Shown: positions 2,843 through 58,001 of the stretch, piece after piece | Layout of the letters: each line of letters opens with the position of its first letter | Numbering within the stretch: position 1 is the first letter of the stretch | From: Minisyncoccota bacterium | GTDB lineage: Bacteria > Patescibacteriota > Minisyncoccia > Phycocordibacterales > Phycocordibacteraceae | Length of the DNA stretch: 64,000 bases | Assembly: GCA_041658485.1 (NCBI GenBank) | Contig: JBBAAE010000003.1 | Coordinates: 10,300-74,299, forward strand | Direction of reading: 5' to 3' | Notes under the pieces: model-generated | What the model was told of the DNA's origin: nothing | Seen by the model: the letters and a program-made list of their open reading frames with translations, nothing else | The model's database searches: none | Made by a program: the position numbers and the translations under genes

Positions 2843-2866
2843 AGGTTCTAGGTTCTAGGTTCTAGG
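2843..2866. repeat. Tandem heptanucleotide repeat (AGGTTCT)x3 plus a partial unit
   Basis: aggttctaggttctaggttctagg sits directly after the stop codon. Same 7-nt repeat family as in the minor-pilin leaders. Confidence 0.7.
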
Positions 2867-5054: not shown

Positions 5055-5130
5055 AGCGTTTAGGGAAAAACTTTTTGTATTAGCTTTTGCTGTTCACACT
5101 AACCCCTAATCACTAACCCCTACCCACTAG
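5055..5130. repeat. REP-like intergenic repeat built from TTAGGG/CCCTAA-type units
   Basis: agcgtttaggg ... cactaacccctaatcactaacccctacccactag. Related copies at 11601, 55131, 56849 and 58038. Confidence 0.6.
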
Positions 5131-6659: not shown

Positions 6660-8438
6660 ATGGATGTTCTTTCCCTCCTCTCGGAGAAAGGTCTCGTTGA
6701 TAAAAATGCTCTTGCTGGCATTAAAGAAGAGATTGCAACAAGTTCCAAAACTCTTGAGAAGGCCCTCTTAGATAGGGGAGTATCTCCGAGTGACATTCTT
6801 AGTGCTCGGGGTGAGTATTACTCAGTACCAACGCATGAGATTGGTGAGGACGTAGTCCCTTTTGCTGTACTGAACTATATTCCAGAAGAATCTGCTCGTC
6901 ATTACCGCTTTGCCCCCCTCGCATTGAATGATGGCGTACTTGAGGTTGGTACTACTGACCCAGATAACCTTGATGCAGTAGAAGCACTTAATTTCATTGC
7001 TTCGCGCACAAATGTTCCGTATAAGATATTTCTTATCTCCGATGAAGACTTCGACAAAATTATTGGAATGTACAAAGGTCTTTCTGGTGAGGTTGGGCAG
7101 GCACTCGGAGAATTACAAAGCACGGCTGGAGATGATGATGAACTCAGTGTGGCTCTCGAGGAAGCGCCAAGCGAGAAACTTACTGATGCTGAAAAAGGAA
7201 ATGTCAAAATAAAAGAAGACGCTCCCGTTACAAAAATTGTTGCAACTATTCTTCGGTATGCCGTTGATGGTAAGGCGTCCGACATTCACATAGAACCAAC
7301 GCGCGAGGAATTGAAGGTTCGTTTTCGTGTTGACGGCGTCTTGTACACGTCTCTCCGACTACCAAAAAACCTAGAGCGTTCTGTTATTGCGCGTATTAAG
7401 GTACTTTCATCACTCAAGCTTGACGAGAGAAGAAAGCCACAAGACGGTCGTTTTTCTGCAACCATAGATGCGAGACGCGTAGACTTTCGTGTATCAACAT
7501 TTCCAACCTATCACGGCGAAAAGGTGGTGATGCGTATTTTGGATCGTCGACTTCAAACACAAAAACTCAATGACATTGGACTGACGGACGAAAACTCTGA
7601 AACGATTCGAAAAGCAATTAAAAAGCCTTACGGAATCATTGTTATTTCTGGTCCAACAGGTTCTGGTAAATCGACAACACTGTATGCGATGCTTCAGGAG
7701 CTTGATCGTGAGGGAATGAATGTTGTCTCTCTTGAAGACCCGGTCGAGTACGACATCGATGGGGTGTCTCAGTCACAGGTACGCCCAGAAATCGGCTATA
7801 CATTTGCATCGGGACTCCGCTCCATATTGCGTCAAGACCCGAACATTATTATGGTGGGAGAAATTCGCGACAAAGAGACAGCACAGCTTGCCATTCAAGC
7901 CGCACTCACTGGACACCTAGTTCTCACCACGCTTCACACCAATAATGCCATTGGTATCGTGCCCCGACTCGTTGACATGGGCGTTGACCCATACTTGATT
8001 GCGCCGACGCTCATTCTATCTATCGCTCAGCGACTTGTGCGTCTTCGCTGTGAAGATGCTGGTAAGCCTATTCCTTTTGAGGGTGCTGTTGCTACTATGA
8101 TTGAAAAGGAATTCGCTGATATTCCTGCTGAATTTAAGAAAAAACTTCCCGCAGCAAAAACTGTCTACGGTATTGCTCCATCTCCAACCTGCGCTAATGG
8201 TACTCGTGGGCGTGTTGCGGTGTTTGAAATGTTGCCTACATCGCCTGAACTAGAGCACATCATTCTTACTAACCCAATTGAAGATGAATTGTACAAAGTG
8301 GCGCGTGCACAAGGCATGTTCACGATGAAAGAGGATGCTATTATGAAAATGCTTAAAGGCACTATTCCTTTCGAAGAAGTGAACACGCTTGGTGGTGAAC
8401 TTCTTCGCGACGAGGAAGCCGACGAAAAATTGCCGTAA
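6660..8438 (+). CDS. pilB: Type IV pilus assembly ATPase PilB (GspE family)
   Basis: N-terminal GSPII_E N domain, Walker A GPTGSGKSTT, Asp box, His box (LVLTTLHTN), tetracysteine-like region. Confidence 0.9.
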   Translation: MDVLSLLSEKGLVDKNALAGIKEEIATSSKTLEKALLDRGVSPSDILSARGEYYSVPTHEIGEDVVPFAVLNYIPEESARHYRFAPLALNDGVLEVGTTDPDNLDAVEALNFIASRTNVPYKIFLISDEDFDKIIGMYKGLSGEVGQALGELQSTAGDDDELSVALEEAPSEKLTDAEKGNVKIKEDAPVTKIVATILRYAVDGKASDIHIEPTREELKVRFRVDGVLYTSLRLPKNLERSVIARIKVLSSLKLDERRKPQDGRFSATIDARRVDFRVSTFPTYHGEKVVMRILDRRLQTQKLNDIGLTDENSETIRKAIKKPYGIIVISGPTGSGKSTTLYAMLQELDREGMNVVSLEDPVEYDIDGVSQSQVRPEIGYTFASGLRSILRQDPNIIMVGEIRDKETAQLAIQAALTGHLVLTTLHTNNAIGIVPRLVDMGVDPYLIAPTLILSIAQRLVRLRCEDAGKPIPFEGAVATMIEKEFADIPAEFKKKLPAAKTVYGIAPSPTCANGTRGRVAVFEMLPTSPELEHIILTNPIEDELYKVARAQGMFTMKEDAIMKMLKGTIPFEEVNTLGGELLRDEEADEKLP

Positions 8439-8440
8439 TT

Positions 8441-8842
8441 ATGGAGCCAACTACTCAAAAAAACTATTCCATTCTTCTCGTCGATGACGATCGATTTCTT
8501 TTGGATATGTATACATTGAAGTTTAAAAACGAAGGGCATACTGTTGAAGCAATTCCAGACCCTAATCTTGCTCTTGAAAAACTGCGAAAAGGTTTTTTGC
8601 CGAACATTATTTTGCTTGATGTTGTAATGCCGGGGGTATCAGGATTTGAGCTCTTGGAGATAATTAAAAAAGAAAATCTTGCGAAAGGTGCAGTAATTGT
8701 AATGCTCACCAATCAAGGTCTTCAAGAAGATATAGACAAAGGAATGAAGTTTGGTGCATCTGGCTACATCATTAAGGCAAGTTCAATACCTTCTGAGGTT
8801 TTGCAAAAAACATTGGCAATTGCTGCGACGCAGCTTACATAA
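8441..8842 (+). CDS. Stand-alone response regulator receiver (CheY/PilH-like)
   Basis: ILLVDDDRFLLDMY...LLDVVMPGVSGFELL receiver motifs. No output domain. Confidence 0.8.
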   Translation: MEPTTQKNYSILLVDDDRFLLDMYTLKFKNEGHTVEAIPDPNLALEKLRKGFLPNIILLDVVMPGVSGFELLEIIKKENLAKGAVIVMLTNQGLQEDIDKGMKFGASGYIIKASSIPSEVLQKTLAIAATQLT

Positions 8843-8844: not shown

Positions 8845-9906
8845 ATGGAATACAAATCCGAACTTGAATCGCTTATAGATACTGTTATTGCTGAAGGAGC
8901 ATCCGATTTACATATAACTGCAAATTCCAATCCCATCATTCGCACTTCGGGTACGCTTATACCACTTCTGAAGCGTGTAAAATATACACCTGAAGATACT
9001 CTCGGAATCTTGGGCGCACTCATTCCGCCAGAAAAATTACAATCATTTAAGCAGGATCAAGAGGTAGATTTTTCGTATCAGTATAAAGATCAAATGAGGT
9101 TTCGTGGCAATGCATTCTTTCAGCAAGGAACAGTGTCCATTGCGCTTCGTTTGATTCCAAGAGAAATCAAGTCACTTGAAGAATTGGGGCTACCTCCAAT
9201 TCTTGAGACATTTTGCCAATTACAGCAAGGTTTTTTCTTGGTTGTGGGTCCTGTTGGTCAAGGAAAATCAACGACACTTGCGTCAATGGTGGAAAAAATA
9301 AACCAAACACGCACTGAGCACATTATTACTATTGAGGATCCGATTGAATACATGTTCACATCGAAAAACTCAATTATCAATCAGCGTGAAGTGCGACTCG
9401 ATACTAAAACATTTCAAGCGGCTCTTCTTTCCGCGTTCCGCGAAGACATCAATGTGCTCATGGTGGGGGAAATGCGTGGACCTGAGACCATGGCAGCAGC
9501 AGTGACCGCAGCTGAAACTGGACACCTCGTGCTTTCAACACTGCACACCAACAATGCTGCTCAGACCATTGATCGTATTATCGATACATTCCCAACGGGT
9601 CAGCAGGATCAAATCCGTCTTCAACTTGCTGCATCATTGGCAGGGATATTCTCACAGAGACTTGTTCCTAGGATATCGGGAGGCCTCATTCCTGCATATG
9701 AGCTTTTGATTAATAATGATGCAGTGGCAAATCTTATCCGTGAAAAGCGTACCCATGAAATTAATGCAGTGATTGAAACAGGTACGGAGTCGGGCATGAT
9801 TGACATGAATCGCTGTCTTGCTGACTTGGTGCGTCGCGGAGAAGTTACGCCGGAGAATGCACTTTCGAGAACATGGAATCCTAAGGCATTTTCGCGCCTT
9901 ATGTAA
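8845..9906 (+). CDS. pilT: Twitching-motility ATPase PilT
   Basis: Walker A GPVGQGKSTT, LVLSTLHTN, PilT-like length (353 aa). Confidence 0.9.
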   Translation: MEYKSELESLIDTVIAEGASDLHITANSNPIIRTSGTLIPLLKRVKYTPEDTLGILGALIPPEKLQSFKQDQEVDFSYQYKDQMRFRGNAFFQQGTVSIALRLIPREIKSLEELGLPPILETFCQLQQGFFLVVGPVGQGKSTTLASMVEKINQTRTEHIITIEDPIEYMFTSKNSIINQREVRLDTKTFQAALLSAFREDINVLMVGEMRGPETMAAAVTAAETGHLVLSTLHTNNAAQTIDRIIDTFPTGQQDQIRLQLAASLAGIFSQRLVPRISGGLIPAYELLINNDAVANLIREKRTHEINAVIETGTESGMIDMNRCLADLVRRGEVTPENALSRTWNPKAFSRLM

Positions 9907-9918: not shown

Positions 9919-11127
9919 ATGCTCTTTAAATACCAAGCAATTGATGCAAGTGGAGCAAAGCAAGAGGGGAGTATTGATGCAATATCCCGTGATGTTGCTA
10001 TTGCTTCGCTCCAGCGTCGCTCACTCACTATCTCAGCAATTGAAGAGTCTGATCCTGAAAAAAAATCTTTGTTGGGCGGTATTACTTTGTTTGAAAGTGT
10101 TACGAATCGCGACATTGTTTTATTGTCACGCCAAATCGCGACATTGTTCGAAGCTCAAGTGTCCGCGCTTCGCGTGTTTCGTCTTCTTGCATCAGAATCT
10201 GAGAAGCCTCTTTTGGGCCGAGTCTTGACTGAGGTAGGAGATGATCTTCAGTCAGGTAGTCCAATATCTAAAGCGTTATCAAAACACCCGAAAGTTTTTA
10301 GTGCATTTTATGTGAACATGGTGAAAGCTGGCGAGGAGTCAGGCAAGCTTGATGAGACATTTCTCTATCTTGCCGATTACCTCGATCGATCATACGAAGT
10401 GATGAGTAAGGCAAAAAATGCACTCATCTATCCCGCCTTTGTTATAGCGACATTTTTTGTAGTTATGATTCTTATGATGACCATGGTCATCCCACGTATT
10501 TCTTCCATTCTTATCGATGCAGGACAAGCAATACCCGTGTACACGCAGGTAGTTATATCTATCAGTAACTTTTTTGTGAACTACGGAGTGTTCCTTCTCA
10601 TACTTCTCGTTGTTGGAGGCATATTTCTTTTCCGCTATGCAGGTACTCCTCAAGGACGCGCATCATTCAGTGCTTTTGAGCTCGCTATTCCCTATGTGGG
10701 CGATTTATACAAGAAGCTTTATCTATCGCGCATCGCTGACAACCTTGCCACGATGCTTGGGTCGGGTATTTCTGTGGTGCAAGCTGTTGACGTGACGGCA
10801 AATGTTGTAGGCAATGCAGTCTATGCAGATATTTTGCAGGAAGTCGCAAATTCAGTGAAGGGAGGAGGTTCAGTATCTGGAGCTCTCGAAAAACGTAAAG
10901 AGGTACCTGGGATTATGGTTGCAATGATGCGCGTCGGTGAAGAGACGGGTGAATTAGGTAGTATCTTAAAGACTCTTGCGAAGTTTTATCAGCGAGAGGT
11001 TTCAACGAGCGTAGATACACTCGTTGGTCTTATTGAGCCAATTATGATTGTGACTTTAGGTTTGGGGGTTGGTATACTGTTGGCATCGGTCTTGGTGCCG
11101 ATCTACAATCTCTCCGCCGCTATTTAA
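9919..11127 (+). CDS. pilC: Type IV pilus inner-membrane platform protein PilC (GspF family)
   Basis: Two GspF repeats with 3 TM segments, 402 aa. Confidence 0.85.
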   Translation: MLFKYQAIDASGAKQEGSIDAISRDVAIASLQRRSLTISAIEESDPEKKSLLGGITLFESVTNRDIVLLSRQIATLFEAQVSALRVFRLLASESEKPLLGRVLTEVGDDLQSGSPISKALSKHPKVFSAFYVNMVKAGEESGKLDETFLYLADYLDRSYEVMSKAKNALIYPAFVIATFFVVMILMMTMVIPRISSILIDAGQAIPVYTQVVISISNFFVNYGVFLLILLVVGGIFLFRYAGTPQGRASFSAFELAIPYVGDLYKKLYLSRIADNLATMLGSGISVVQAVDVTANVVGNAVYADILQEVANSVKGGGSVSGALEKRKEVPGIMVAMMRVGEETGELGSILKTLAKFYQREVSTSVDTLVGLIEPIMIVTLGLGVGILLASVLVPIYNLSAAI

Positions 11128-11150: not shown

Positions 11151-11603
11151 ATGAACCTTGCTTCAACAAAACGAGGCTTCACCCTTATCGAACTCCTCGT
11201 TGTTATTGCCATCATCGGTATTCTTTCGTCCGTCGTGTTGGCATCTCTCAACACTGCTCGTTTGAAATCACGCGATGCGCGTCGTATTTCGGACATTAAG
11301 CAGTTGCAAATCGCACTCGCTCTTTATTCTGACTCAAACTCTTCAGCATACCCAACGACACTTGCAGGTCTTGCCCCTACCTACATCGGCGTTGTTCCTA
11401 CTGATCCTGTAGGCAACGTAGCCTATAGATACGCAGCACTTGGTACTGGCGCTTCTTGTACGAATTACCATCTCGGCGCAACCTTTGAAGAGACTACCAA
11501 CCAAGCTCTGACTGGAGACATCGATGCAGCTGCAGGTACCATTTGTACTGGCTCCAGTGCCGACTTTGCAGGTACGGACCCAATCTTTGATGTGAAGCCG
11601 TAG
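11151..11603 (+). CDS. pilA: Type IV major pilin with a short leader
   Basis: ATG at 11151 gives MNLASTKRG|FTLIELLVVIAIIGIL, the class III signal and N-methylation motif. Confidence 0.8.
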   Translation: MNLASTKRGFTLIELLVVIAIIGILSSVVLASLNTARLKSRDARRISDIKQLQIALALYSDSNSSAYPTTLAGLAPTYIGVVPTDPVGNVAYRYAALGTGASCTNYHLGATFEETTNQALTGDIDAAAGTICTGSSADFAGTDPIFDVKP

Positions 11604-11697
11604 GGAAGCAGGGGATAGCGTTTAGGATATAGGGGTTAGGGAAGAGCCCTGAGTTAGAAGTTCCCCTAAACACTAAACGCTACACCCTAACCCCTGC
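11601..11697. repeat. REP-like imperfect-palindrome repeat (TTAGGG/CCCTAA-type units)
   Basis: gcaggggatagcgtttaggatataggggttaggg ... cccctaaacactaaacgctacaccctaacccctgc; the two halves are inverted copies. Fills the pilA-pilD intergenic region. Confidence 0.65.
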
Positions 11698-11704
11698 TCT
11701 CTGT

Positions 11705-12550
11705 ATGCTTGAAGTACTTCTCCCACTTTTTGTGTTTGGTATAGGGCTATGCGTTGGGAGTTTTGTTAATGTTCAAATATTTCGCTTTGGTTTTGGCGAG
11801 CATGCTCGTTCTCGTTCATGTTGTATGGCATGTGACATGCCAATCTCTTGGTATGACCTGATTCCTATTTTCTCATATGTCGCACTGTCAGGCAGGTGTC
11901 GTGCATGTGGAAGCGCGCTTTCAACTCAATATCCATTGATTGAGGGTATAGTTGGATTTCTGTTTTTGGTAGCATTTTTAATAATGCCACCAGTCTTATC
12001 GCTTTGGTCAATTCTGGCATTCACCATGCTCCTTGTTTTTATTGCATCTTTGGTGGCCTTAGTTGTATACGACATACGACACACTTTAGTGCCTATGCCT
12101 TTTATCTATATGCTCGTAGGTTCTGCACTTCTCGCATCTATTTCACAAAGTTTGTTTAGCGATTCGTTTTTTCCACTTATTGATTCTCTTATTGGAGGGG
12201 CAATCTTGTTTGGTGGTTTTTTCGGTATTGTACTTGTTACCCGTGGGCGAGGTATGGGCGTAGGTGATGCGTATGTTGTTGGTGCGGCCGGCCTCTTGCT
12301 CGGACTGTTTCGAGGTATCGAATCAGTTATGTTCGGAGTCTGGTCTGCAACAATTGTTTATTTGATAATTTTTCTTTTATCCTCTATTCATTCAAAAAAA
12401 AGATTGTTGCCTCACGGTGCTCGGGTTACCATGAAAACAGAGTTGCCGTTCGTGCCATTTCTTGCTTTTGGCATTGGCCTCGCTCTCTTCACGACGCTTT
12501 CACCACTCTCACTTGGGTCGTGGCTCGCCAATCTATTATGGTTTCAATAA
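11705..12550 (+). CDS. pilD: Prepilin peptidase PilD (A24 family)
   Basis: N-terminal CxxC...CxxC zinc-binding domain (CMACDMPISW...CRACGSAL), multi-TM body with conserved Asp-containing loops. Confidence 0.85.
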   Translation: MLEVLLPLFVFGIGLCVGSFVNVQIFRFGFGEHARSRSCCMACDMPISWYDLIPIFSYVALSGRCRACGSALSTQYPLIEGIVGFLFLVAFLIMPPVLSLWSILAFTMLLVFIASLVALVVYDIRHTLVPMPFIYMLVGSALLASISQSLFSDSFFPLIDSLIGGAILFGGFFGIVLVTRGRGMGVGDAYVVGAAGLLLGLFRGIESVMFGVWSATIVYLIIFLLSSIHSKKRLLPHGARVTMKTELPFVPFLAFGIGLALFTTLSPLSLGSWLANLLWFQ

Positions 12551-13158
12551 AAAAAAAGCCTTCAGCTTTCAGCCTTCAGCTTTCAGGGGGGATTAAAAAA
12601 TCTTTTGTCGTTCGTGGTTTAACGCTCATTGAGCTTCTTGTAGTGATGGGTATTTTCTCTATCATTTCGCTCGTTGTTCTTGCTAATCACTCTCGCTTCA
12701 ATAGTTCAGTTCTTCTTGGAAGTCTTGCATATGATATTGCGTTATCGATTCGTGAAGCACAGGTGTATGGCTTGTCTGTAAAACAATATGGTAGTAATTT
12801 CCAAGTTGGATACGGTCTCCGTTTTGCCGGTGCATCCTCGTATACATTTTTTGTTGATACAAATGCAAATAAACGCTATGACAGCGGGGTTGATTCAATT
12901 GTGCAGACATTTTCAATTAGTCGTGGCCACACCGTGAAAAGTTTTTGCGGTATCACGGCGAGTGGAGTTCAGGAATGTTCTCCGAGCGGGATTGATCATT
13001 TAGATGTTGTCTTTTTTAGACCTGACCCAGATGCTCTATTTTCTTCCAATACTTCTACCGTGTATTCAAGTGGTCAAATAGTAGTTACATCTCCGACAGG
13101 GGAAACGCGCACCGTTAAAGTTGCTTCAACGGGTCAGATTTCGGTAACAAATCCATGA
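12538..13158 (+). CDS. Minor pilin (pseudopilin 1) with a long leader
   Basis: Leader MVSIKKKPSAFSLQLSGGIKKSFVVRG|LTLIELLVVMGIF. The leader is encoded by (GCYTTCA)x4 tandem heptamers. Overlaps the pilD stop. Confidence 0.7.
   Translation: MVSIKKKPSAFSLQLSGGIKKSFVVRGLTLIELLVVMGIFSIISLVVLANHSRFNSSVLLGSLAYDIALSIREAQVYGLSVKQYGSNFQVGYGLRFAGASSYTFFVDTNANKRYDSGVDSIVQTFSISRGHTVKSFCGITASGVQECSPSGIDHLDVVFFRPDPDALFSSNTSTVYSSGQIVVTSPTGETRTVKVASTGQISVTNP
12559..12586. repeat. Tandem heptanucleotide repeat inside the pseudopilin-1 leader coding region
   Basis: gccttca gctttca gccttca gctttca (4 units, 28 nt). Confidence 0.75.
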
Positions 13159-13844
13159 AAAAAACTACGCAAAGCACCTATACGAAAGACCACTCCGGGG
13201 CGTTTGCCCGAGTCTCAGTCTTTCGTATAGGTGCTTTGCTCCGCACGGGTGGAAAGGGAACAGCGCGGGGATTCACTCTGATTGAGATGATGGTTGCGGT
13301 AACAATATTCGCCATTGTTATGATGATTGGGGTTGGTGGGTTATTGTCGCTTGTGGCTACAAACCATCGTGCGCAGGCAATCCATTCAGTCATGAACAAC
13401 CTGAGTGCAGCAGTCGAAGGTATGTCACGATCCATTCGTGTAGGCACCTTATATAATTGTGTTACTTCTGCCACAACACCCCCATCCCCTCCGCCATCTT
13501 CAACAATTGCAAATCCACAAGATTGCGCTTTGGGTGGAGCTCGTCTTCTTGCGTTTGAGTCGTCAACGGGCAATTTGACCGACGCGAATGACCAAGTTGT
13601 CTATCGGTTAAATGGTACACAACTTGAGCGTTCTTTGCGTGGCGGTGCTAACGGTAGTTGGATTGCGATTACTGCGCCCGAAGTTTCAATTGATAGCTTT
13701 GATTTTTATGTTGTTGGCTCAGCGAAAGGAGATGGTATACAGCCCCGTGTTCTTATGCGCATTAAGGGTTCGGCGGTAGTTCCGGGGGGTACAACTACAT
13801 TTACCGTGCAGGCAAGTGTTGTTCAACGCGTTCTTGATATTTAA
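13155..13844 (+). CDS. Minor pilin (pseudopilin 2) with a roughly 40-aa leader
   Basis: ...GKGTARG|FTLIEMMVAVTIFAIVMMIG. ATGA overlap with the upstream gene. Confidence 0.7.
   Translation: MKKTTQSTYTKDHSGAFARVSVFRIGALLRTGGKGTARGFTLIEMMVAVTIFAIVMMIGVGGLLSLVATNHRAQAIHSVMNNLSAAVEGMSRSIRVGTLYNCVTSATTPPSPPPSSTIANPQDCALGGARLLAFESSTGNLTDANDQVVYRLNGTQLERSLRGGANGSWIAITAPEVSIDSFDFYVVGSAKGDGIQPRVLMRIKGSAVVPGGTTTFTVQASVVQRVLDI
13170..13238. repeat. 21-bp perfect inverted repeat inside the pseudopilin-2 leader coding sequence
   Basis: caaagcacctatacgaaagac (13170-13190) and gtctttcgtataggtgctttg (13218-13238), separated by a 27-nt spacer. Confidence 0.8.
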
Positions 13845-13847
13845 TTT

Positions 13848-14414
13848 ATGAAAAACAACCAGCTTTCAGGTTTCAGCTTTCAGCTTTCAGGTTCTAGACA
13901 GGCGAACACAATTCGTGCTTTCACATTAATTGAAACATTTGTTGCAATTACCGTATTGTTAATTTCTCTCGTCGGACCTCTTTCAATTGCGGCACAATCT
14001 CTTCGTCTCGCATATTACGCACGGGATCAAGTGACTGCTTTTTATCTTGCACAGGAAGCGGTGGAATATGTGAGAGCCGAGCGCGATCAAAACTATCTTG
14101 CTAATGCGCCGTGGCTTACTAATCTTGGTGACTGTGTGGGGGCGTCATGCGTGGTTGATTTTCCTCGCTTTACCCACAGTGCATGTGGCGTTCTGAGTAC
14201 CTGCCCTCCTATATATATAAGTAGTGCAACAAAATTATACAATCAGGACGCAACGAGCGGGCCTGCATCAGCCTTTACTAGAGTCCTTTCTATTACGCCA
14301 GTTGTAGGCAGTGTTGATGAAGTAATAGTGAAGGTGAGGATCTCTTGGGTGTCGGTTGGAATCAATAGATCATTTCAGGTTACTGAGCATCTTTTTAATT
14401 GGGCAGGACCATGA
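13848..14414 (+). CDS. Minor pilin (pseudopilin 3)
   Basis: Leader MKNNQLSGFSFQLSGSRQANTIRA|FTLIETFVAITVLLISL. Leader encoded by 5 tandem heptamers. Confidence 0.7.
   Translation: MKNNQLSGFSFQLSGSRQANTIRAFTLIETFVAITVLLISLVGPLSIAAQSLRLAYYARDQVTAFYLAQEAVEYVRAERDQNYLANAPWLTNLGDCVGASCVVDFPRFTHSACGVLSTCPPIYISSATKLYNQDATSGPASAFTRVLSITPVVGSVDEVIVKVRISWVSVGINRSFQVTEHLFNWAGP
13861..13895. repeat. Tandem heptanucleotide repeat inside the pseudopilin-3 leader coding region
   Basis: agctttc aggtttc agctttc agctttc aggttct (5 units). Confidence 0.75.
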
Positions 14415-14947
14415 GTATGAAAGAAAAAACAGGTTTCAGGTTTCAGGTTTCAGGTGCGAGTTCATTAACTCCAAAAGCCTTTTCTCGTACCTCACGGGGA
14501 TTCACTCTTTTGCTCGCAGTATTGATTAGTAGCATACTCATTGCTATTGGTTCGGCAATTTTTAATATTCTTTCAAAAGAAATTATTCTTTCGTCGTCAG
14601 GTCGTGAGTCACAATTTGCTTTTTTTGCAGCTGACAGCGGAATCGAGTGCGCTCTCTATTGGGATACAAAACAGAATGCATTTGCAACAACATCAGCACT
14701 CACACAAGTTGCCTGTGGAGGCGGTTTGGCAGACTTAACGCGCACCTCAGGGGGCACTCTACTCCGACCAACATACACAACGGTGTTTTCTTTTCCGCTT
14801 GACGGAGGAGAGGCTAATCCTTGTATTACCGTGACGGTTGCCAAAACCTTTTATCCAACCGAAACAATTATTGCCTCGCAAGGTTACAACACATGCGTTA
14901 CGACGAATCCGCTCCGTCTTGAGCGCGCCATTCGAGTACAGTATTAA
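14411..14947 (+). CDS. Minor pilin (pseudopilin 4)
   Basis: MSMKEKTGFRFQVSGASSLTPKAFSRTSRG|FTLLLAVLISSILIAIG. ATGA overlap. Leader contains (AGGTTTC)x3. Confidence 0.7.
   Translation: MSMKEKTGFRFQVSGASSLTPKAFSRTSRGFTLLLAVLISSILIAIGSAIFNILSKEIILSSSGRESQFAFFAADSGIECALYWDTKQNAFATTSALTQVACGGGLADLTRTSGGTLLRPTYTTVFSFPLDGGEANPCITVTVAKTFYPTETIIASQGYNTCVTTNPLRLERAIRVQY
14431..14451. repeat. Tandem heptanucleotide repeat inside the pseudopilin-4 leader coding region
   Basis: aggtttc aggtttc aggtttc (3 perfect units). Confidence 0.75.
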
Positions 14948-15066
14948 TTTTGGAAACTATGGAGTGGAAAAAAGTTACAAAATTTTCGCAGGTGGTAGCT
15001 ATCATTTTATTTGTTGGAGTATTTTTTCTTGGTTTTTATCTTGGGAAAATGTCGGTAAGTGTTTAG

Positions 15067-15324
15067 ATGTCCCACTTTGTTTATATTTTAGAGTGTGCTG
15101 ATACGAGCCTATATATTGGGTCTACTGTTGATTTGGAAAAACGAGTCCATCAGCATAATCATGCCTCATCAGGTGCCCACTATACAAAAATTAGGAGGCC
15201 TGTTGTGCTGAAATACACAGAAATATGCACAAGCTTTGCACAGGCTCGTGCTCGTGAAGCAGAACTGAAAAGACTAACTCGAGAAGAAAAAATTATACTT
15301 ATACACAGGAGTACTGAGAAATGA
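15067..15324 (+). CDS. Small GIY-YIG nuclease-family protein (UPF0213-like)
   Basis: VYILECADTSLYIGSTVDLEKRVHQHN... matches the GIY-YIG motif. 85 aa. Confidence 0.7.
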   Translation: MSHFVYILECADTSLYIGSTVDLEKRVHQHNHASSGAHYTKIRRPVVLKYTEICTSFAQARAREAELKRLTREEKIILIHRSTEK

Positions 15325-15378: not shown

Positions 15379-17052
15379 GTGTCGATGACGCAGAATGATG
15401 CACTCACGATTTTGAAGACGGGCGCTAATGTTTTTTTGACGGGTGAACCTGGAAGCGGAAAGACTCACACTGTAAATGCATATGTAGCATGGCTTCGAGA
15501 TAAAGGAATTGAACCTGCCATCACCGCATCAACGGGCATTGCAGCGACACACATTGGAGGCATTACATTACACTCTTGGAGTGGTATCGGTATTGCAGAG
15601 CGTTTATCAGAGCAGGATATCGATGCCATTGCGGGGAAAGAACATGTGGCGAGGCGAATAACAAAATCGCGCATACTCATCATTGATGAAATTTCTATGC
15701 TATCGGGAGAAACCTTAGCGCTAGCAGAAGCAGTGGTACGAGAAGTACATCGAAGTCAGGAAGTGTTTGGTGGTATTCAGGTGATTTTTGTTGGTGATTT
15801 TTTTCAACTTCCACCAGTTTCTAAACGAGGTGCTTCGCGGGCATCTTTTGCTTTTGAGTCTGCCGTCTGGAAGGCAGTAAATCCAATTGTTTGTTACCTC
15901 ACTGAACAGCATAGGCAAGAAGATGAAATATTTCTTTCTGCCCTCGCTTCCATTAGGTCGGGCGTTGCTGACGAAGAGACCTTACTGTGTTTTCAAGACA
16001 GAGCGGTGTCTCCGAATGATGTCTCACATAAAATTCCGCGTCTCTTCGCACATAATATGGATGTCGATCGTATTAATGCGGACGCACTTGCCAAACTTAA
16101 AGGTCAGCCGACGGAATTTGCGATGACCGCACAAGGAAGTGACAATCTCGTCCTTGGCCTCAAGCGGGGATGTTTGTCTCCTGAGAAGCTTTTTCTTAAG
16201 AAGGATGCGGTAGTGATGTGTACGAAGAACAATCCGAACATTGGTTTTGCAAATGGTACGCTCGGAGTGGTTATTGGATTTAATGAAGAAAATACGTACC
16301 CAATTATAAAAACAAAAGATGGGCACGTATTTACTGTGGAACCTATGGAATGGGCTGTGGAGCAGGATGGAAAAGTGCGCGCACGAATTACTCAAGTACC
16401 ACTCAGGCTTGCATGGGCAATGACCATACATAAGAGTCAGGGGATGAGTATGGATGCTGCTGCTATAGACCTCTCTCAAGTATTCGAGCATGGGCATGGG
16501 TATGTTGCTCTCTCAAGGGTACGAACTCTCCGAGGGCTTCATCTTCTAGGGTGGAGCGAGCGGGCACTCTTGGTGCACCCGCGAGTGGCTGAACAGGATG
16601 CACAATTTCGTATTAAGTCTGAGGATGCAAGGGCAGTTTTCGAGGAGATGAGTGATGCAGAGCATGCGGGTATGGAAGAAAATTTTATTCGTGCATGCGG
16701 AGGAACACTTGAAGCAGAGAAGAATATTCACACTAAAAAAGAAAAATCCAGCACACTCTCTAAAACACTTATCCTGATACAGGAAGGTCACTCCATCTCT
16801 GATATTGCTAAGATACGATCGTTAAAAGTAGGAACACTTATTGACCATGTTGAAAAAATAGTAGAGCGGGGTTTATGTGAAGTGAATGATATACAAAATA
16901 TTTTTTCGATGAGTATTATAGAGGCCTTGCCGGTTATTCACGAGGTATTTGAGCGGGAAGGATCGGAACGACTTTCTCCGATATTTGAGCATTTTAAGGG
17001 CATGTACTCGTATGAAGATCTTCGTATTGCCCGTCTATTTTTTAAGCAATAG
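15379..17052 (+). CDS. PIF1/RecD-like ATP-dependent DNA helicase with a C-terminal HTH domain
   Basis: Walker A GEPGSGKTHTV, Walker B LIIDEISML, helicase motifs (VGDFFQLPPV, AMTIHKSQG). C-terminal HTH-like segment LIQEGHSISDIAKIRSLKVGTLIDHVEKIV. Confidence 0.8.
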   Translation: MSMTQNDALTILKTGANVFLTGEPGSGKTHTVNAYVAWLRDKGIEPAITASTGIAATHIGGITLHSWSGIGIAERLSEQDIDAIAGKEHVARRITKSRILIIDEISMLSGETLALAEAVVREVHRSQEVFGGIQVIFVGDFFQLPPVSKRGASRASFAFESAVWKAVNPIVCYLTEQHRQEDEIFLSALASIRSGVADEETLLCFQDRAVSPNDVSHKIPRLFAHNMDVDRINADALAKLKGQPTEFAMTAQGSDNLVLGLKRGCLSPEKLFLKKDAVVMCTKNNPNIGFANGTLGVVIGFNEENTYPIIKTKDGHVFTVEPMEWAVEQDGKVRARITQVPLRLAWAMTIHKSQGMSMDAAAIDLSQVFEHGHGYVALSRVRTLRGLHLLGWSERALLVHPRVAEQDAQFRIKSEDARAVFEEMSDAEHAGMEENFIRACGGTLEAEKNIHTKKEKSSTLSKTLILIQEGHSISDIAKIRSLKVGTLIDHVEKIVERGLCEVNDIQNIFSMSIIEALPVIHEVFEREGSERLSPIFEHFKGMYSYEDLRIARLFFKQ

Positions 17053-43035: not shown

Positions 43036-43508
43036 ATGACGACATTGATGACATTCAGATGCCCGCAATGAATCCTAGTGGTAAATCAGCAGCTCTCGTA
43101 GAGGACGGCTTATCTCCAAAAGAATTTGAAAAAATAGTTGCTGATGCTTTTCTTTTAGTCCCAGAAAAATTTAGCTCAAAAGTGAGTGCTAGCGCTATTG
43201 TAATCGAAGATGCACCGAGTGATGCCGTGCTCCGTGAGCAGAATGTTCCAGAGAATTATACGCTTTTCGGTTTGTATAAGAGCACAGAGACTGGTGATGG
43301 GGTAGTTATATTTCGTAATCCTGTTTTGCATGCTGCCGCTCACGAAGCTGGGGTTGAAGTGGAATGGGGTGCTCCGACCGAGCCAATGAAGCGACGTCTT
43401 CGTACCATTGTGCGCGACATTATTTGGCATGAAATTGCACGCCACTTTGATATGGATGAATTTGAAATAGATGCGCGTGAGGAGACATCAACAAACGAAT
43501 TTAAGTAA
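43032..43508 (+). CDS. Hypothetical acidic protein (possible zincin-like fold)
   Basis: 158 aa. Has HEIARH, a HExxxH variant that does not match the canonical HExxH zinc-binding motif. Function uncertain. Confidence 0.35.
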   Translation: MNDDIDDIQMPAMNPSGKSAALVEDGLSPKEFEKIVADAFLLVPEKFSSKVSASAIVIEDAPSDAVLREQNVPENYTLFGLYKSTETGDGVVIFRNPVLHAAAHEAGVEVEWGAPTEPMKRRLRTIVRDIIWHEIARHFDMDEFEIDAREETSTNEFK

Positions 43509-43512: not shown

Positions 43513-43542
43513 AGCTGTCAGGTTTCAGTTTCCGGCTTTCAG
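43513..43542. repeat. Degenerate heptamer repeat x4, same family as the pilin leaders
   Basis: agctgtc aggtttc agtttcc ggctttc, directly after the stop codon. Confidence 0.6.
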
Positions 43543-50393: not shown

Positions 50394-50455
50394 TTTTATG
50401 ATCCCTACAAATTCAACGACACATTGCCTGAAACCTGAAAGCCTCAGTCTCGGTC

Positions 50456-52465
50456 TTAGACGCCTATTAAGACAGGAATTACCATTGGACGTTTTGATGT
50501 TTTCTGGAAAAGATAGCGCTCTACTGTGTCAGTAAGATTTGCTTTTATATACTCAAGGTCGACAGGGTTCATACCTGCGGCGAGGTCTTCTGTGGTTTTC
50601 TTTATGAGTAGGCGTGTTTCTGAAAGTAGTCCTTGGGACTCTCTGAGGTACACGAAACCACGAGAAATAATATCAGGAGATTTCTTTAAGGTGCCGGTGC
50701 GCAGATTTACGGTAGCGATAATGACGAACATTCCGTCTTGAGCAAGCGACTGACGGTCTCGTATAACCACTTCCTGCATGTCACCAATAGCAAAGCCGTC
50801 CACCATCATAGGATTTGAAGGAATTTTTTCCTTACGAACCGTCATGGTGGTTCCGTTTTCGATTTCTATGACAGTACCGTTATCAGGTAAGACGACATTT
50901 TCTTTAGGGAAGCCACTCGCAATCTGCGCATTGGCATGATATTTGAGCATCGAGAAGAAGCCATACGCTGGCATAAAGAATGCTGGATTTACTTGCTGGC
51001 GCATCCAGACAAGCTCTCCTGTGTTTCCGTGCCCCGTTGAGTGAACATCTGAAGAGCGATAGTGAATCAGGTTTACATTGTGACGGAGAAGATTGTCTTT
51101 TAATTTTTGCACGCGTACTTCATTGCCTGGAATAACTGATGAAGAAAGAATGATGGTATCGCGCTCAGTGAAGGCAATGTTTTTATGTTTTTTTGTAGCA
51201 ATACGCATCAGGGCTGCGGTATCCTCGCCTTGTGAGCCGGTTGCAATAATGACGATGCGATCTGCTGGATAGTCATTAATATCTTCAGCGCGAATCATGG
51301 TGCCCGGCTTTGGTGTAAAGATATTTGCGCGCTGAGCGATTTCAATGTTTGTCTTGATAGACCTGCCTTCGGTGATGATTTTTTTACCAAGATTCTCTGA
51401 CACCTTAATGATGTGAATCATGCGCTCAAACTGGGACGAGAATGTTCCGATGATGAGGCGTCCCTTCACTGACTTAATGATGTCTTCAAGGGTTGTATAG
51501 ACACGCGATTCAGGAATAGAGAAACCATCTCTCTCAGCGTTTGTAGAGTCAGCGATGAATATAAGATTTTTATCTTTTCCGAGCGCACCCCAGTGTTTTT
51601 CTTCCTTCGGGGTTGGTATGCCGTCTTCATGTTCCAATCGTAAGTCCCCAGAAATCACGATGTTGCCGTGCTTGGTTTGGATTGAAAGACCCATAGCGTC
51701 TGGAATGGAATGGGTAACAGGAAATGTTTTTACTATTACTGGATCTCCTCCAGGTAAACTCACTGAAACACGTCCGCCCGGCTCGATGACTCGAACATCA
51801 ATGTCGGCAATGTGTGGAAACTCCTCCTGTCGGCGCTTAATCATCAAGGACGTAAGGTACTGCGTATAGATTGGTGGATTACCAATACGGTCAATGATGT
51901 AGGGGATACCGCCAATGTGGTCGAGGTGTCCGTGTGTTATGAAAATACCCAAGATGCGATCTTTGTTTTCTTCAAGATAGCGAGTGTTTGGAAGTATGTA
52001 GTCGACACCAGGGGTTGCTTCTTCTGAAACGAATTGAAATCCAACATCTGAAATAATGATGCCCTGTGGCAATTCAAAAATCATCATGTTGCGACCCACT
52101 TCTTCAACGCCACCAATTGGCATAATGCGGACCGTGTCTTCATTTAATGGAGGAAGTACCACGCGATCGACTGCGTTCATGTCGCGAACTGAAGGCTCTC
52201 TTGGTGGGGGAGTTGCACGCATTGGGCGGTTATTTGAACGAGGTCTGGCGTGCCTTCGTGGTCCATTACCTGGAGCACCTTGAGGCCGTCTTGGTCCGCG
52301 TGATGGTCCTTGTCTTCCCGAACTTGGAGCGCTTGGTCGTGCAGGTTGCCCCATCGTCCTTCCAGGGAGTGCATTAAATGGACGCGCTCGGCCAGTACGA
52401 GTATTTTGAGTAGGGCGCGGTCTATCTCTTGACTGTGGGTTTGGACCTCTAGATGGAGTGTTCAT
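50456..52465 (-). CDS. rnj: Ribonuclease J with a roughly 110-aa Arg/Pro-rich N-terminal extension
   Basis: MBL motif IFITHGHLDHIGG, beta-CASP and RNase J C-terminal domains. N-terminus PSRGPNPQSRDRPRPTQNTRTGRARP... is low complexity. Confidence 0.9.
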   Translation of the reverse strand: MNTPSRGPNPQSRDRPRPTQNTRTGRARPFNALPGRTMGQPARPSAPSSGRQGPSRGPRRPQGAPGNGPRRHARPRSNNRPMRATPPPREPSVRDMNAVDRVVLPPLNEDTVRIMPIGGVEEVGRNMMIFELPQGIIISDVGFQFVSEEATPGVDYILPNTRYLEENKDRILGIFITHGHLDHIGGIPYIIDRIGNPPIYTQYLTSLMIKRRQEEFPHIADIDVRVIEPGGRVSVSLPGGDPVIVKTFPVTHSIPDAMGLSIQTKHGNIVISGDLRLEHEDGIPTPKEEKHWGALGKDKNLIFIADSTNAERDGFSIPESRVYTTLEDIIKSVKGRLIIGTFSSQFERMIHIIKVSENLGKKIITEGRSIKTNIEIAQRANIFTPKPGTMIRAEDINDYPADRIVIIATGSQGEDTAALMRIATKKHKNIAFTERDTIILSSSVIPGNEVRVQKLKDNLLRHNVNLIHYRSSDVHSTGHGNTGELVWMRQQVNPAFFMPAYGFFSMLKYHANAQIASGFPKENVVLPDNGTVIEIENGTTMTVRKEKIPSNPMMVDGFAIGDMQEVVIRDRQSLAQDGMFVIIATVNLRTGTLKKSPDIISRGFVYLRESQGLLSETRLLIKKTTEDLAAGMNPVDLEYIKANLTDTVERYLFQKTSKRPMVIPVLIGV

Positions 52466-55130: not shown

Positions 55131-55195
55131 ACTAGGGTATAGGGTTTAAATTTCCCTACACCTGATACCCTAAACCCTAATCACTAATCACTAAT
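55131..55195. repeat. REP-like repeat (TTAGGG/CCCTAA-type units)
   Basis: cactagggtatagggtttaaatttccctacacctgataccctaaaccctaatcactaatcactaa. Confidence 0.6.
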
Positions 55196-55206
55196 AAAAA
55201 CTAATC

Positions 55207-56847
55207 ATGGCAAAAAAAATTCTTTTTGAAGCAGATGCTCGAAACGCAGTCAAAACCGGTATCGACATTGTAGCGAGAGCGGTGAAAGTTACGCTTGGAC
55301 CTCGAGGACGCAATGTCATTCTCGATAAAGGCTACGGCGGTCCACATATGACGAACGACGGTGTCACTATCGCAAAAGAAATCACCCTCAAAGACAAATT
55401 TCAGAACATGGGCGCTGAATTGGTAAAGGAAGTTGCAAGCAAGACTAATGATATGGCAGGTGATGGCACCACCACTTCAGTTGTTTTGTTTCAGGCACTT
55501 GTTGATGAAGGAATGAAACACACAGCGATGGGCTTGAATGCTATGGGTATTCGCACCGGTATGGAGCACGCTGCAGAAGCTGCGGTGAAAGCACTCAAAT
55601 CAATGGCAAAGCCGGTTGCAGGAGACAATAAAGTCATCAAGCAGGTGGCAACTATTTCAGCAGAGTCTGAAGACATTGGTAAGACAATTGGTGAAGTCAT
55701 CAAAGAAGTTGGTCAAAATGGTGTGGTGACCGTTGAAGAGTCACAGTCGTTTGGTATTGAGAAAGAAGTTGTAGAAGGTATGGAGTTTGATCGCGGATAT
55801 GTGTCGCACTACATGATTACGAATCCTGAAAGAATGGAAGCGGAATATCGTGATGCACCAATTCTCGTTACCGATAAAAAAATCGCTTCAATTCAGGAAA
55901 TCCTTCCAATACTTGAGGCTATCGCAAAGACAGGCAAAAAAGAGTTGGTTATTATTGCGGACGATGTAGAAGGGGAAGCGCTCACAACATTTGTAGTGAA
56001 CAAACTTCGCGGAGCTTTCAGTGTGCTCGCAGTAAAAGCCCCAGGATACGGCGATAGAAAGAAAGACATGCTTGCTGACATTGCTTCGACAATCGGCGCT
56101 ACTGTTGTTTCTGAAGAAACAGGTATGACCTTAGACAAGGTGGATATTTCCGTTCTTGGTCGTGCACAGAAAGTTATTGCAACAAAAGACTCAACAATCA
56201 TTGTTGGTGGAAAAGGAAAGAAGTCCGCAATTGACGCACGTGTTGCCTCACTCAAGAAGCAACTTGAAGCAATCACTTCTAAGTTCGATAAAGAGAAAAT
56301 TGAAGAGCGCATTGCAAAGTTGTCAGGTGGCGTTGCAGTCATTCGCGTCGGTGCTGCGACAGAAACTGAAATGAAGTATTTGAAAGATAAGATTGAAGAT
56401 GCGGTCAATGCCACGAAAGCAGCTATTGCTGAAGGTATTGTTCCTGGGGGTGGTACTGCTCTCGTCAAAGCTGCAGCAAAAGCTGAAGCTGATGCAGATT
56501 GGAAAAGTATGTCCAAAGAAGAGGAAATTGGTTTCCGCATCGTTCTTTCGGCTCTTTTGAAACCATTGAAGCAAATTGCGATGAACGCAGGAAAAGAAAG
56601 CGGGGAAGTTATTGTTGAGGCAGTTAAGAAAGCAAAAGGATTTGCTGGATATGATGCAGTTAAAGACGAAATTGTTCCTGACATGATGATTGCAGGCATT
56701 ATTGATCCAGTGAAAGTAACTCGAGGTGGACTTGAACATGCCGTTTCTGCAGCAGCTATTCTTCTTACAACTGAAGTTGCTATCGCGGAGGAGCCTGAAG
56801 AGAAGAAAGAAATGAGTGGTGCTCCTGGAGGGGGAATGGATTACTAA
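55207..56847 (+). CDS. groEL: Chaperonin GroEL
   Basis: AVKTGIDIVARAVKVTLGPRGRNV..., 546 aa, Gly/Met-rich C-terminus. Confidence 0.95.
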   Translation: MAKKILFEADARNAVKTGIDIVARAVKVTLGPRGRNVILDKGYGGPHMTNDGVTIAKEITLKDKFQNMGAELVKEVASKTNDMAGDGTTTSVVLFQALVDEGMKHTAMGLNAMGIRTGMEHAAEAAVKALKSMAKPVAGDNKVIKQVATISAESEDIGKTIGEVIKEVGQNGVVTVEESQSFGIEKEVVEGMEFDRGYVSHYMITNPERMEAEYRDAPILVTDKKIASIQEILPILEAIAKTGKKELVIIADDVEGEALTTFVVNKLRGAFSVLAVKAPGYGDRKKDMLADIASTIGATVVSEETGMTLDKVDISVLGRAQKVIATKDSTIIVGGKGKKSAIDARVASLKKQLEAITSKFDKEKIEERIAKLSGGVAVIRVGAATETEMKYLKDKIEDAVNATKAAIAEGIVPGGGTALVKAAAKAEADADWKSMSKEEEIGFRIVLSALLKPLKQIAMNAGKESGEVIVEAVKKAKGFAGYDAVKDEIVPDMMIAGIIDPVKVTRGGLEHAVSAAAILLTTEVAIAEEPEEKKEMSGAPGGGMDY

Positions 56848-56848: not shown

Positions 56849-56880
56849 AGGGTATAGGGGTTAGCGTTTAGGGTTTAGGT
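56849..56880. repeat. REP-like repeat (TTAGGG/CCCTAA-type units)
   Basis: agggtataggggttagcgtttagggtttaggt has three GGG runs plus a GGGG. Confidence 0.6.
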
Positions 56881-57965: not shown

Positions 57966-57980
57966 TCCTCTGTTTCTTAA

Positions 57981-58001
57981 AAGCTGAAAGCTGAAAGCTG
58001 A
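57981..58001. repeat. Tandem heptamer (AAGCTGA)x3, reverse complement of the TCAGCTT pilin-leader unit
   Basis: aagctgaaagctgaaagctga directly after the lemA stop, followed by a ggtcc-cttc-ggacc hairpin. Confidence 0.7.

Follow-up and report, generated by a model that had tools for sequence, protein, structure and literature searches.

The 64-kb stretch of contig JBBAAE010000003.1 analysed here, referred to below as the window, carries a type IV pilus operon of Candidatus Paceibacterota in which four minor-pilin genes, PP1 to PP4, adjoin the gene of the prepilin peptidase PilD, and a nucleotide-level repeat lies within the leader-coding region of each of the four. PilD (11705-12550, forward strand, as are the pilin genes; Pfam A24_N_bact 2.2e-24, Peptidase_A24 9.2e-07) is the enzyme that would be expected to remove the leaders. 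It is followed by PP1 (12538-13158; N_methyl 3.6e-05), whose ATG lies 10 nt ahead of the PilD stop and whose leader of 27 residues (12538-12618) ends at the cleavage motif G↓LTLIE at 12619, and by PP2 (13155-13844; N_methyl 4.1e-08, GspJ-like), whose ATG overlaps the PP1 stop (ATGA) and whose 39-residue leader (13155-13271) precedes G↓FTLIE at 13272. The PilV-like PP3 (13848-14414; NCBIfam PilV 7.8e-06) has a 24-residue leader (13848-13919) and A↓FTLIE at 13920, and in PP4 (14411-14947), whose ATG overlaps the PP3 stop, a 30-residue leader (14411-14500) precedes G↓FTLLL at 14501. The type IV prepilin signature, consisting of G or A at position -1, F or L at +1, E at +5 and a hydrophobic N-terminal helix, is present, and N_methyl/TIGR02532 matches for the major pilin, PP1 and PP2 are joined by the PilV match of PP3; PP4 deviates in having L in place of E at +5, and the sole family match of its PilX-like N-terminus is a weak one to PilX_N (0.0022, below the Pfam cutoff). 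For the PP3 protein NCBI has an exact counterpart, MFA5876945.1, which derives from a metagenome-assembled genome of Candidatus Paceibacterota, and its 559 homologues all come from Patescibacteria.

The major pilin (11151-11603; N_methyl 5.9e-09 and GspG/pilin-type NCBIfam matches) provides an internal contrast to the repeat-bearing minor pilins, as it has the short leader MNLASTKRG↓FTLIE and no repeat. Leaders of type IVa pilins typically comprise about 5-10 residues, a range that the minor pilins of the window clearly exceed with their 24-39. Upstream, a Pfam/NCBIfam profile search of the window proteins locates PilB (6660-8438), a receiver-only response regulator (8441-8842) situated between PilB and PilT, PilT (8845-9906) and PilC (9919-11127), and the prepilin peptidase and the assembly genes are thus all found in the one pilus locus.

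The arrays of the window were called by Tandem Repeats Finder (TRF) together with a family pattern search and grouping of repeat families. In PP1 the array (12557-12586, forward strand) reads AGCCTTC AGCTTTC AGCCTTC AGCTTTC AG and is reported by TRF as 4.3 copies of period 7 with 86% matches, or, taken as period 14 (AGCCTTCAGCTTTC), as 2.1 perfect copies. The PP3 array (13861-13895, forward strand) consists of AGCTTTC AGGTTTC AGCTTTC AGCTTTC AGGTTCT (TRF 13860-13890, 4.4 copies, 91% matches), and the PP4 array (14431-14455, forward strand) of three AGGTTTC units followed by AGGT (TRF 14430-14455, 3.7 copies, 100% matches), so that PP4 alone is perfect while the arrays of PP1 and PP3 are imperfect. 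The pattern AGSYTTCAGSYTTC with at most one mismatch has 12 matches in the window, compared with a mean of 0.37 and a maximum of 2 in shuffles, and the three leader arrays with their A-rich 5′ flanks constitute a single 44-nt family (12543-12586, 13847-13890 at 77% and 14417-14460 at 68%). The folds predicted for their RNA are unstructured (z = +0.94, -0.05 and -0.61 for PP1, PP3 and PP4, respectively). The leader of PP2 instead holds a hairpin (13169-13239, forward strand) with 22-nt arms (13169-13190 and 13218-13239) that are 100% complementary, a 27-nt loop and a conserved apical part, GACCACTCCGGGGCGTTTGCCCGAGTCTCAGTC; it is in frame and stop-free within the coding gene, and its predicted RNA fold of -58.9 kcal/mol (z = -6.2) is followed by no U-tract.

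The same heptamer family is also found outside the pilin genes, and in total the AGSTTYC family occupies seven sites in the window. An intergenic array of 3.4 AGGTTCT units (2843-2866, forward strand) begins 4 nt past a stop codon and precedes a terminator-like hairpin, a degenerate array, AGCTGTC AGGTTTC AGTTTCC GGCTTTC (43513-43540, forward strand), follows the stop at 43506-43508, and an array in reverse orientation, 3.3 units of AAAGCTG (57980-58002, forward strand), lies 15 nt past the stop at 57965. Two further units of the family (GGCTTTCAGGTTTC) are located at 50430-50443 on the minus strand, 3′ of the stop of the minus-strand gene 50456-52465. The initial annotation of this DNA had described period-7 repeats in the leader-coding regions of PP1, PP3 and PP4, upstream of the cleavage site, and both the TRF calls with the shuffle comparison and the cleavage motifs given above bear this out, although the GCYTTCA units of PP1 are at 12558-12585 rather than 12559-12586 and the fifth PP3 unit is AGGTTCT and not AGSTTTC. 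Likewise, the PP2 hairpin described there exists, with arms of 22 nt in place of a 21-bp stem, and the major pilin does have a normal short leader free of repeats, but one of nine residues including the Met instead of eight. The related heptamers placed after stop codons at 2843, 43513 and 57981 (reverse) are real, the minus-strand site being a fourth, and the presence of one family at leader and post-stop sites of the window agrees with the view that these are members of a genome-wide family of simple sequence repeats (SSRs).

All four elements of the window lie in an open frame between an ATG at or near the upstream stop and the prepilin cleavage motif, and the reading frames indicate that the long leaders are indeed read from the start codon at the upstream stop and that the repeats are translated. 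First, no in-frame ATG, GTG or TTG is present between array and cleavage site in PP1, PP3 and PP4: the canonical in-frame starts of PP1 are only at 27 and 33 codons 5′ of the cleavage site, the sole in-frame start of PP3 is the ATG at 13848, and those of PP4 are only 28-34 codons 5′ of the cleavage site, while in PP2 a TTG 12 codons ahead of the cleavage site is the only alternative. Next, 122 long-leader minor-pilin genes have the cleavage site 60-330 nt past the preceding pilin stop and an ATG between -14 and +12 nt relative to it, and in 113 of them this junction ATG shares the frame of the mature protein with no stop in between, whereas for untranslated spacers about one third or less would be expected by chance. 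Finally, the length differences between alleles, of 21, 75 and 81 nt as well as in all cassette swaps, are without exception multiples of three. A different assignment of starts, with the true ones 3′ of the repeats (an ATT at 12593 in PP1, the TTG in PP2) and the repeats themselves as untranslated intercistronic spacers, would draw on the plausible 12-residue leader that the PP2 TTG right after the hairpin provides, and on PP1, where GG(G/A)GGATTAAAAAATC at 12587-12606 is kept after the array in the related loci L001, L004 and L006 while the array region varies, and where IKKSFVVRG would be a canonical leader if ATT could initiate. An alternative in-frame start is likewise available downstream of 39 of the 90 leader arrays found in the survey described below. 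However, the other 51 arrays have none, as is the case in PP3 and PP4, and together with the in-frame junction ATGs and the multiples of three this makes such an annotation artefact hardly credible. Since no start intervenes between array and cleavage site and the junction ATGs are in frame, a change by one unit would frameshift the gene. Inspection of the arrays for a -1 ribosomal frameshift site revealed no X XXY YYZ motif.

Leader repeats of this kind are not confined to the window. A census of Patescibacteria pilus regions, from which comparison loci are cited here by L numbers, covered 162 loci with 997 kb of DNA centred on pilus loci (80 from genomes, 80 from metagenomes, the others found via exact protein, with duplicate contigs dropped, and the window) and located 723 prepilin genes, 581 for minor and 142 for major pilins, in about 160 genomes and metagenomes. 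Arrays of about three or more units number 117 at period 7 and 32, 15, 4 and 4 at periods 5, 6, 8 and 9, respectively, and dinucleotide-blind block shuffles yield none at period 7. Ninety of the 117 lie in an open frame 5′ of a prepilin cleavage site, with minor pilins accounting for 87 and major pilins for 3, and within minor-pilin leaders 83 arrays of period 7 are accompanied by three or fewer at periods 5, 6, 8 and 9. In a crude partition based on open reading frames (ORFs) of this pilus-centred DNA, leaders contain 1.86 arrays per kb, compared with 0.25 for intergenic DNA and 0.015 for other coding sequence. The pattern is therefore lineage-wide and specific for period 7, and the search for heptamers in pilin leaders of related genomes suggested by the initial annotation has found them in 37 of the 162 loci and in 72 of the 581 minor-pilin genes. 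Leaders across the loci range from 3 to about 90 residues, and the nearest possible start lies at least 20 codons 5′ of the cleavage site in 92/581 minor versus 3/142 major pilins; many orthologues have leaders of 3-11 residues without any element.

What is conserved in these arrays is not their sequence. There are 62 distinct heptamers, which vary by genome (AGTATCC, ATACACG, GCTACGA, AATTCAA, TTTCGAA and others), and in L024, L047, L051, L071, L075 and L167 one heptamer is common to the minor pilins of the genome. Orthologues may have period-7 arrays of wholly different units and hence different peptides, which places the feature at the nucleotide level; a repeat conserved as protein was considered and rejected on these grounds, and the finding that the initial annotation had named as contrary to its proposal, conservation of the peptide in homologues devoid of nucleotide repeats, was looked for and did not appear. 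The leader arrays are short and uniform, with a median of 4.1 units, a maximum of 6.3 and a mode of 4 units or 32 nt, and 59 of the 90 are perfect. Their position is likewise stereotyped, as first arrays begin 5-18 nt past the ATG and second arrays, where present, end 8-27 nt ahead of the cleavage site. The same unit families occur in leaders and at nearby non-coding sites of one locus in L034, L043, L075, L083 and L115 as well as in the window, and some arrays, in L115 and L075, are located in the 5′ untranslated region (UTR). Shorter arrays in coding leaders could have been a mark of selection against frameshifts, but no length difference is seen between leaders and non-coding sites (median 4.1 versus 3.9 units, p = 0.72).

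Heptameric repeats are known to be over-represented in bacterial intergenic DNA, with inverted pairs and rapid variation, and an origin by polymerase slippage has been proposed (PMC4692102). The dispersed families of Xanthomonas (GGGAATC), Nostoc (GGGGAYT) and Calothrix resemble the present one in the excess at period 7, the genome-specific unit and the many short arrays, and also in the occasional inverted pairs that form stem-loops, the placement by start and stop codons, the dispersal and the strong variation between close relatives. Those arrays are intergenic, whereas the present ones are mostly in translated minor-pilin leaders, in frame and common to four neighbouring genes; a further difference is that the pilin-leader units are not G-rich, so that no quadruplex is expected.

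Comparison with syntenic relatives (L001, L004, L005 and L006, at 90-92% nucleotide identity) shows that no other part of the region is as labile as the leaders, which are replaced as cassettes. In a 20-kb alignment of the window with L001, four of the seven strongly divergent segments are the four leaders, and the other intergenic spacers are conserved. In the PP1 slot, L006 has the same four units, and the array of L001 and L004 is interrupted by two mini-hairpins. The PP2 slot is occupied by the hairpin in the window, by a heptamer array in L005 and by a CCAAAGG/TTCTTGG hairpin in L001. For PP3, five units are present in the window and, with the variants shuffled, in L004, whereas L001 and L005 have the hairpin cassette, which in L005 holds a nested 75-nt insertion, and L006 has a leader of 11 residues. 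The PP4 slot contains three AGGTTTC units in the window and three AGGTTCC units in L004, a CCAAACA/CCAAGAA hairpin in L001 and L005, another hairpin in L006 and a short leader in L007; as the change between window and L004 is common to all three units, the array has evidently been turned over by slippage or conversion. At least eight leader architectures are found among PP3 proteins with mature parts at least 94% identical. Conversely, an AGSTTYC array with the tail K..SFS..SRG (PP4 leader 14417-14500 versus L167 3126-3227) is common to genomes in which the mature PP3 is 36% identical, implying that the cassette is better conserved, or has been more recently exchanged, than its protein.

Differences in unit number were seen in two instances, both of exactly three units (21 nt). 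At the PP3 site the window has five units and L164 two, within homologous flanks. L167 has seven units and L170 and L171 have four; the latter two lack the PP2 gene, and the flank upstream of their array belongs to PP2 (junction at L170 1541-1642 and in L171, versus L167 1821-2623), so that here the unit number changed by recombination between the PP2 and PP3 leader cassettes, which can thus mediate loss of a minor-pilin gene. At about 91% nucleotide identity, L004 and L006 have kept the unit numbers, and over 12026-14021, a segment that spans two of the arrays, an independent assembly (SRR8449812) shows no difference from the window. Assembly artefacts are unlikely given that the arrays are shorter than sequencing reads and that identical sequences were obtained from independent samples (L001-L003; L172). 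A metagenome scan for close relatives retrieved just one, the same contig as L001, and exact-protein look-ups for population variants returned no record for PP4 (with either of two starts) or PP3, and for PP2 only a contig identical to the window.

The initial annotation had taken the repeats for a phase-variation switch, in other words for contingency loci in which slipped-strand gain or loss of one unit would frameshift a minor pilin and switch piliation off and on in subpopulations. The necessary frameshift is possible, as the unit is not a multiple of three and lies in an obligatorily translated leader, most of the leader arrays are perfect, and the conservation of period and position rather than of sequence would be expected were mutability the selected trait. 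The unit number does differ at the orthologous PP3 site, five against two, and the joint change of all three PP4 units is a further sign of turnover. There are also surface-protein genes that have repeats near the 5′ end or in the part coding for the signal peptide and thus set a precedent, namely Neisseria opa with CTCTT and pilC with poly-G, and Helicobacter oipA, all of which resemble the present case in that a repeat that is not a multiple of three lies in a dispensable N-terminal coding part of a surface-structure gene. For oipA, CT repeats are located in the 5′/signal-peptide coding region (PMC10564699), and in Haemophilus influenzae hmw heptanucleotide tracts are located inside the ORF, with a frameshift known for hmw1a (PMC2651432).

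The expected products of such switching, however, are missing. No frameshifted or start-less OFF allele is found among the 723 prepilin genes, 75 of them array-bearing, the one exception being an N-masked gap, while unconstrained drift in unit number would put about two thirds out of frame. One apparent case, the protein P0122 with a leader beginning MSGRKK, was rejected, since in the DNA of L165 the junction ATG is in frame through an array of 4-5 units and the gene caller had taken an internal GTG. The polymorphism in unit number anticipated by the initial annotation is limited to the three-unit differences, one of which stems from recombination between genes, and single-unit variation between strains was not seen, numbers being stable at about 91% identity and in the independent assembly. 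The tracts are also short: 3-5 units in general, with 3.7 perfect units in PP4 and 4.3 and 4.4 imperfect ones in PP1 and PP3, which is just above the permissive threshold of at least three units used for H. influenzae, whereas the validated Haemophilus heptanucleotide switches have 13-38 copies (PMC2651432). More generally, contingency loci have tracts of about 10-40 units. Furthermore, enrichment is confined to period 7, although units of 4, 5 or 8 nt would disturb the frame just as well, array length is alike in coding and non-coding settings, in the 5′ UTR arrays of L115 and L075 unit number is unable to frameshift, and the same leader slot accepts hairpins and an insertion element, so that relatives vary mostly by wholesale replacement of arrays, hairpins and an 81-nt element and not by single units. 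Assemblies show the majority allele only and low-frequency switching would escape such a consensus, yet altogether a maintained switch appears decidedly unlikely. In public records, N-masked runs occur inside leader elements, at about 3961-4006 in L027 (an AAGAGAC array) and at about 2374-2500 in L012 (a PP2-type hairpin).

Besides the arrays, at least two kinds of hairpin occupy the same slot. The PP2-type hairpin is recognisable in 12 copies (in the window, L001, L004-L007, L010 and, with three, L012), of which 12/12 are in minor-pilin leaders, and retains its apex while compensatory double changes affect 12 of 26 predicted pairs and the encoded peptide changes. Rfam has no family for the whole window at gathering thresholds nor for 11500-15100 at E <= 1, and, with regard to a presence of the hairpin in non-pilin proteins, a phmmer search with the 39-residue PP2 leader peptide against 1.8 billion representatives (nothing at E <= 0.001) and a 40-residue word search (no candidates) were both uninformative. 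The second kind is an 81-nt hairpin element, translated as RGF(T/P)S.SE..., which is inserted exactly at the R-G/A-F cleavage codons and has given rise to a target duplication of about 9 nt (CGTGCYTTY). PP3 of L173 has it (1501-1625, filled site), PP3 of L175 lacks it (1501-1545, empty site) and PP2 of L175 has it again (800-925), so that these two close relatives hold it in different minor pilins; 12/12 copies in about 1 Mb of pilus-centred DNA and the 64-kb window are in minor-pilin leaders, and one leader of L097 has two in tandem. Filled and empty sites with a duplication are known from this element of the relatives, and the elements of the window themselves are swapped as whole cassettes including the ATG.

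Hairpins can also be built from the heptamers, as the second leader array frequently approximates the reverse complement of the first. Each of the four leaders of L167 follows the scheme ATGAAAAAAAC-(AGSTTYC)n-AGCTT-A6-AGCT-(AGCTGRA)n, and the reverse-orientation array at 57980 in the window matches the 3′-arm type of these full cassettes. The leader arrays of the window are 5′ arms of the L167-type hairpin family, the 3′ arms of which have decayed. Across the census, 79 of 201 distinct long minor-pilin leaders fold with z < -2, compared with 8 of 120 control segments.

Some of these features are reminiscent of known palindromic elements. Rickettsia palindromic elements (RPE) are in-frame, stop-free palindromes that are translated at permissive sites and are spread over many unrelated genes and intergenic sites. 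The PP2 hairpin and the 81-nt element are alike to RPE and to MITEs (miniature inverted-repeat transposable elements) in being in frame and stop-free, and the unpaired arrays of PP1, PP3 and PP4 fall outside this likeness; the dispersal of RPE is not matched, since in the DNA covered here the hairpin families are seen only in minor-pilin leaders, where processing removes the peptide. The enterobacterial REP/BIME (repetitive extragenic palindromes and bacterial interspersed mosaic elements) are species-specific short imperfect palindromes that lie just past stop codons in operons and stabilise the upstream mRNA, and they are neither translated nor built from 7-nt units. Their placement after a stop within an operon is thus shared with the pilin-leader elements, while translation and the 7-nt units differ. 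A RAYT-type (REP-associated tyrosine) transposase was not seen in the window, although no systematic search for one was made. Finally, in pil1 of Streptococcus gallolyticus GCAGA repeats lie in a leader-peptide coding region beside an RNA stem-loop, and translation through the region matters (PMC3894217). There, however, the repeats belong to a separate small leader ORF that lies 5′ of a sortase-pilus operon, and a transcription terminator makes up the stem-loop, whereas here it is the structural gene itself that holds the repeat in its N-terminus. Intrinsic terminators were considered for the leaders and rejected, as no U-tract follows the PP2 hairpin or the leader arrays and no terminator adjoins the arrays of the window, in disagreement with attenuation of the pil1 type. 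Integron attC-like sites, DNA-uptake sequences and telomere-like TTTAGGG units were also considered, as resemblances only, and dropped for want of support.

Taken together, the elements are a lineage-wide, fast-turnover class at the nucleotide level, which includes heptameric arrays, hairpins built from them and at least two other hairpin families. The explanation favoured here, with about an even chance of being correct, is that heptamer arrays born of slippage, together with hairpin elements, have come to reside in the leader of minor pilins, a segment that is dispensable and is cut off. A bias towards period 7 is a known and unexplained property of many bacteria, and polymerase slippage or gene conversion would create and homogenise the heptamer arrays. 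The start of each gene in the cluster is located at the upstream stop or no more than a few bases from it, and extra DNA would be tolerable only 3′ of the start without uncoupling translation. The prepilin peptidase of the operon would, as its family suggests, then remove the leader, whose sequence and length would as a result be nearly free as long as it stays in frame and stop-free, as it is throughout. The elements are translated as a long leader, of 24-39 residues in the window, and would be discarded with it, and the four leaders exchange sequence with one another and are replaced as whole cassettes between relatives. Elements would thus persist in the minor-pilin leader through the combination of PilD cleavage and a position past the start that keeps start-stop coupling intact, and the danger that a 7-nt unit poses to the reading frame would then be a cost policed by selection and not a maintained switch. 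In support of this settlement of slippage products, the enrichment is limited to period 7, 90/117 arrays are in leaders, unit families are shared between leaders and non-coding sites with equal array length, the 81-nt element has filled and empty sites, PP2 was lost by cassette recombination, and OFF alleles number 0/723.

Several observations nevertheless weigh against tolerance as the whole explanation. Alone, it leaves the roughly 7-fold array density of leaders over intergenic DNA unexplained, a ratio that holds for these pilus-centred loci, and it does not account for the finding that, over one 20-kb segment, replacement affects the four leaders but not the other intergenic spacers, which are conserved. 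In about 1 Mb, the copies of both hairpin families (12/12 and 12/12) are all located in minor-pilin leaders, and the covariation of the PP2-type hairpin with a changing peptide looks like selection on structure or very specific targeting. The AGSTTYC cassette is common to genomes with mature PP3 proteins only 36% identical, and array size is tightly centred at about 4 units. In addition, major pilins with the same cleavable leader hardly ever bear elements (3/142 genes), which needs the extra assumption of stronger selection on a highly expressed gene.

The density excess, the restriction of the hairpins to leaders, the covariation of the PP2 type and the near-absence from major pilins keep alive a dedicated cis-acting role, in which arrays and hairpins would act at the level of RNA (or single-stranded DNA) and be selected for a function specific to minor pilins. 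Such a function might be the efficiency of coupled translation, protection of the upstream cistron from 3′-5′ decay, equal output of the four subunits of the priming complex, or recognition of the 7-nt period by a genome-specific factor. The stereotyped position and size of the arrays, the use of one unit for all minor pilins of a genome with different units between genomes, the frequent pairing of a second, approximately reverse-complementary array into a hairpin and the excess of stable folds among long leaders would all be in keeping with it, as would the position of the PP2 stem, which begins 15 nt past the A of the start codon, about where the footprint of an initiating ribosome has its 3′ edge. 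On the other hand, the three arrays of the window are without a partner arm and unstructured (z -0.6 to +0.9), leader arrays are found in just 37/162 loci with many orthologues lacking any element, and unrelated intergenic sites have the same arrays. At one and the same gene, quite different elements are exchanged between close relatives, which is hard to fit with one required function, no Rfam match was obtained, and no candidate binding protein was identified. A dedicated cis-acting element is thus possible, though on balance improbable.

A more far-reaching model, which we consider unlikely, would see in the leader cassettes a dedicated lineage-wide control module of the pilus-priming complex that no bacteria other than these ultrasmall ones possess. 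Its 7-nt arrays, which differ by genome and are either single or joined into register-shifting hairpins, would be placed just past the coupled start and would set or stochastically switch the output of single minor pilins by one-unit slippage in rare cells and/or by RNA structure, with the families spreading only among pilin leaders. If true, the module would let an episymbiont vary its piliation or the composition of the pilus tip.

Heptamer SSR families, contingency loci and in-frame palindromes are all known, and it is the presence of such repeats in translated prepilin leaders that appears to be new; full-text searches of the literature did not turn up any account of prepilin leaders with heptamer arrays or hairpin cassettes. 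As type IV pili are the main known means of Patescibacteria (the candidate phyla radiation, CPR) to attach to and move on their hosts, a hot spot of nucleotide-level repeats in the minor-pilin leader coding region that is translated, in frame, common to four genes per genome and swapped between close relatives offers a concrete handle on minor-pilin expression. It also represents a clean case of the bacterial heptamer excess under a frame constraint, and the natural series of leaders from 3 to about 90 residues lends itself to the study of what prepilin peptidases tolerate. For annotation, it is a warning that the long and odd N-terminal segments of CPR pilins are genuine and that their variation has causes other than the mature protein.

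Several further observations concern the surroundings of the pilin genes. Directly 3′ of PP4 lies a GIY-YIG ORF of 85 residues (15067-15324), which is kept in L001, and in the PP3 orthologue P0093 a GIY-YIG ORF reads straight into the pilin as a 96-residue "leader". A PIF1-type helicase (15379-17052) follows the pilin cluster and is also kept in L001, as is the response regulator at 8441-8842. A second heptamer family, resembling CCCTAAA/TTTAGGG, a string that is also the plant telomere unit, occurs at 5097-5129, 55140-55200, 56849-56879 and 58040-58060; these sites are all intergenic and flank GroEL (55207-56847) and other genes. Directly 3′ of the major-pilin stop, a 94-nt hairpin (11607-11700; -48.3 kcal/mol, z = -4.9) has arms made of degenerate heptamers, GTTTAGG/ATATAGG/GGTTAGG against CCCTAAA/CACTAAA/CCCTAAC, and in L001 this slot is occupied by a second copy of the major-pilin gene.

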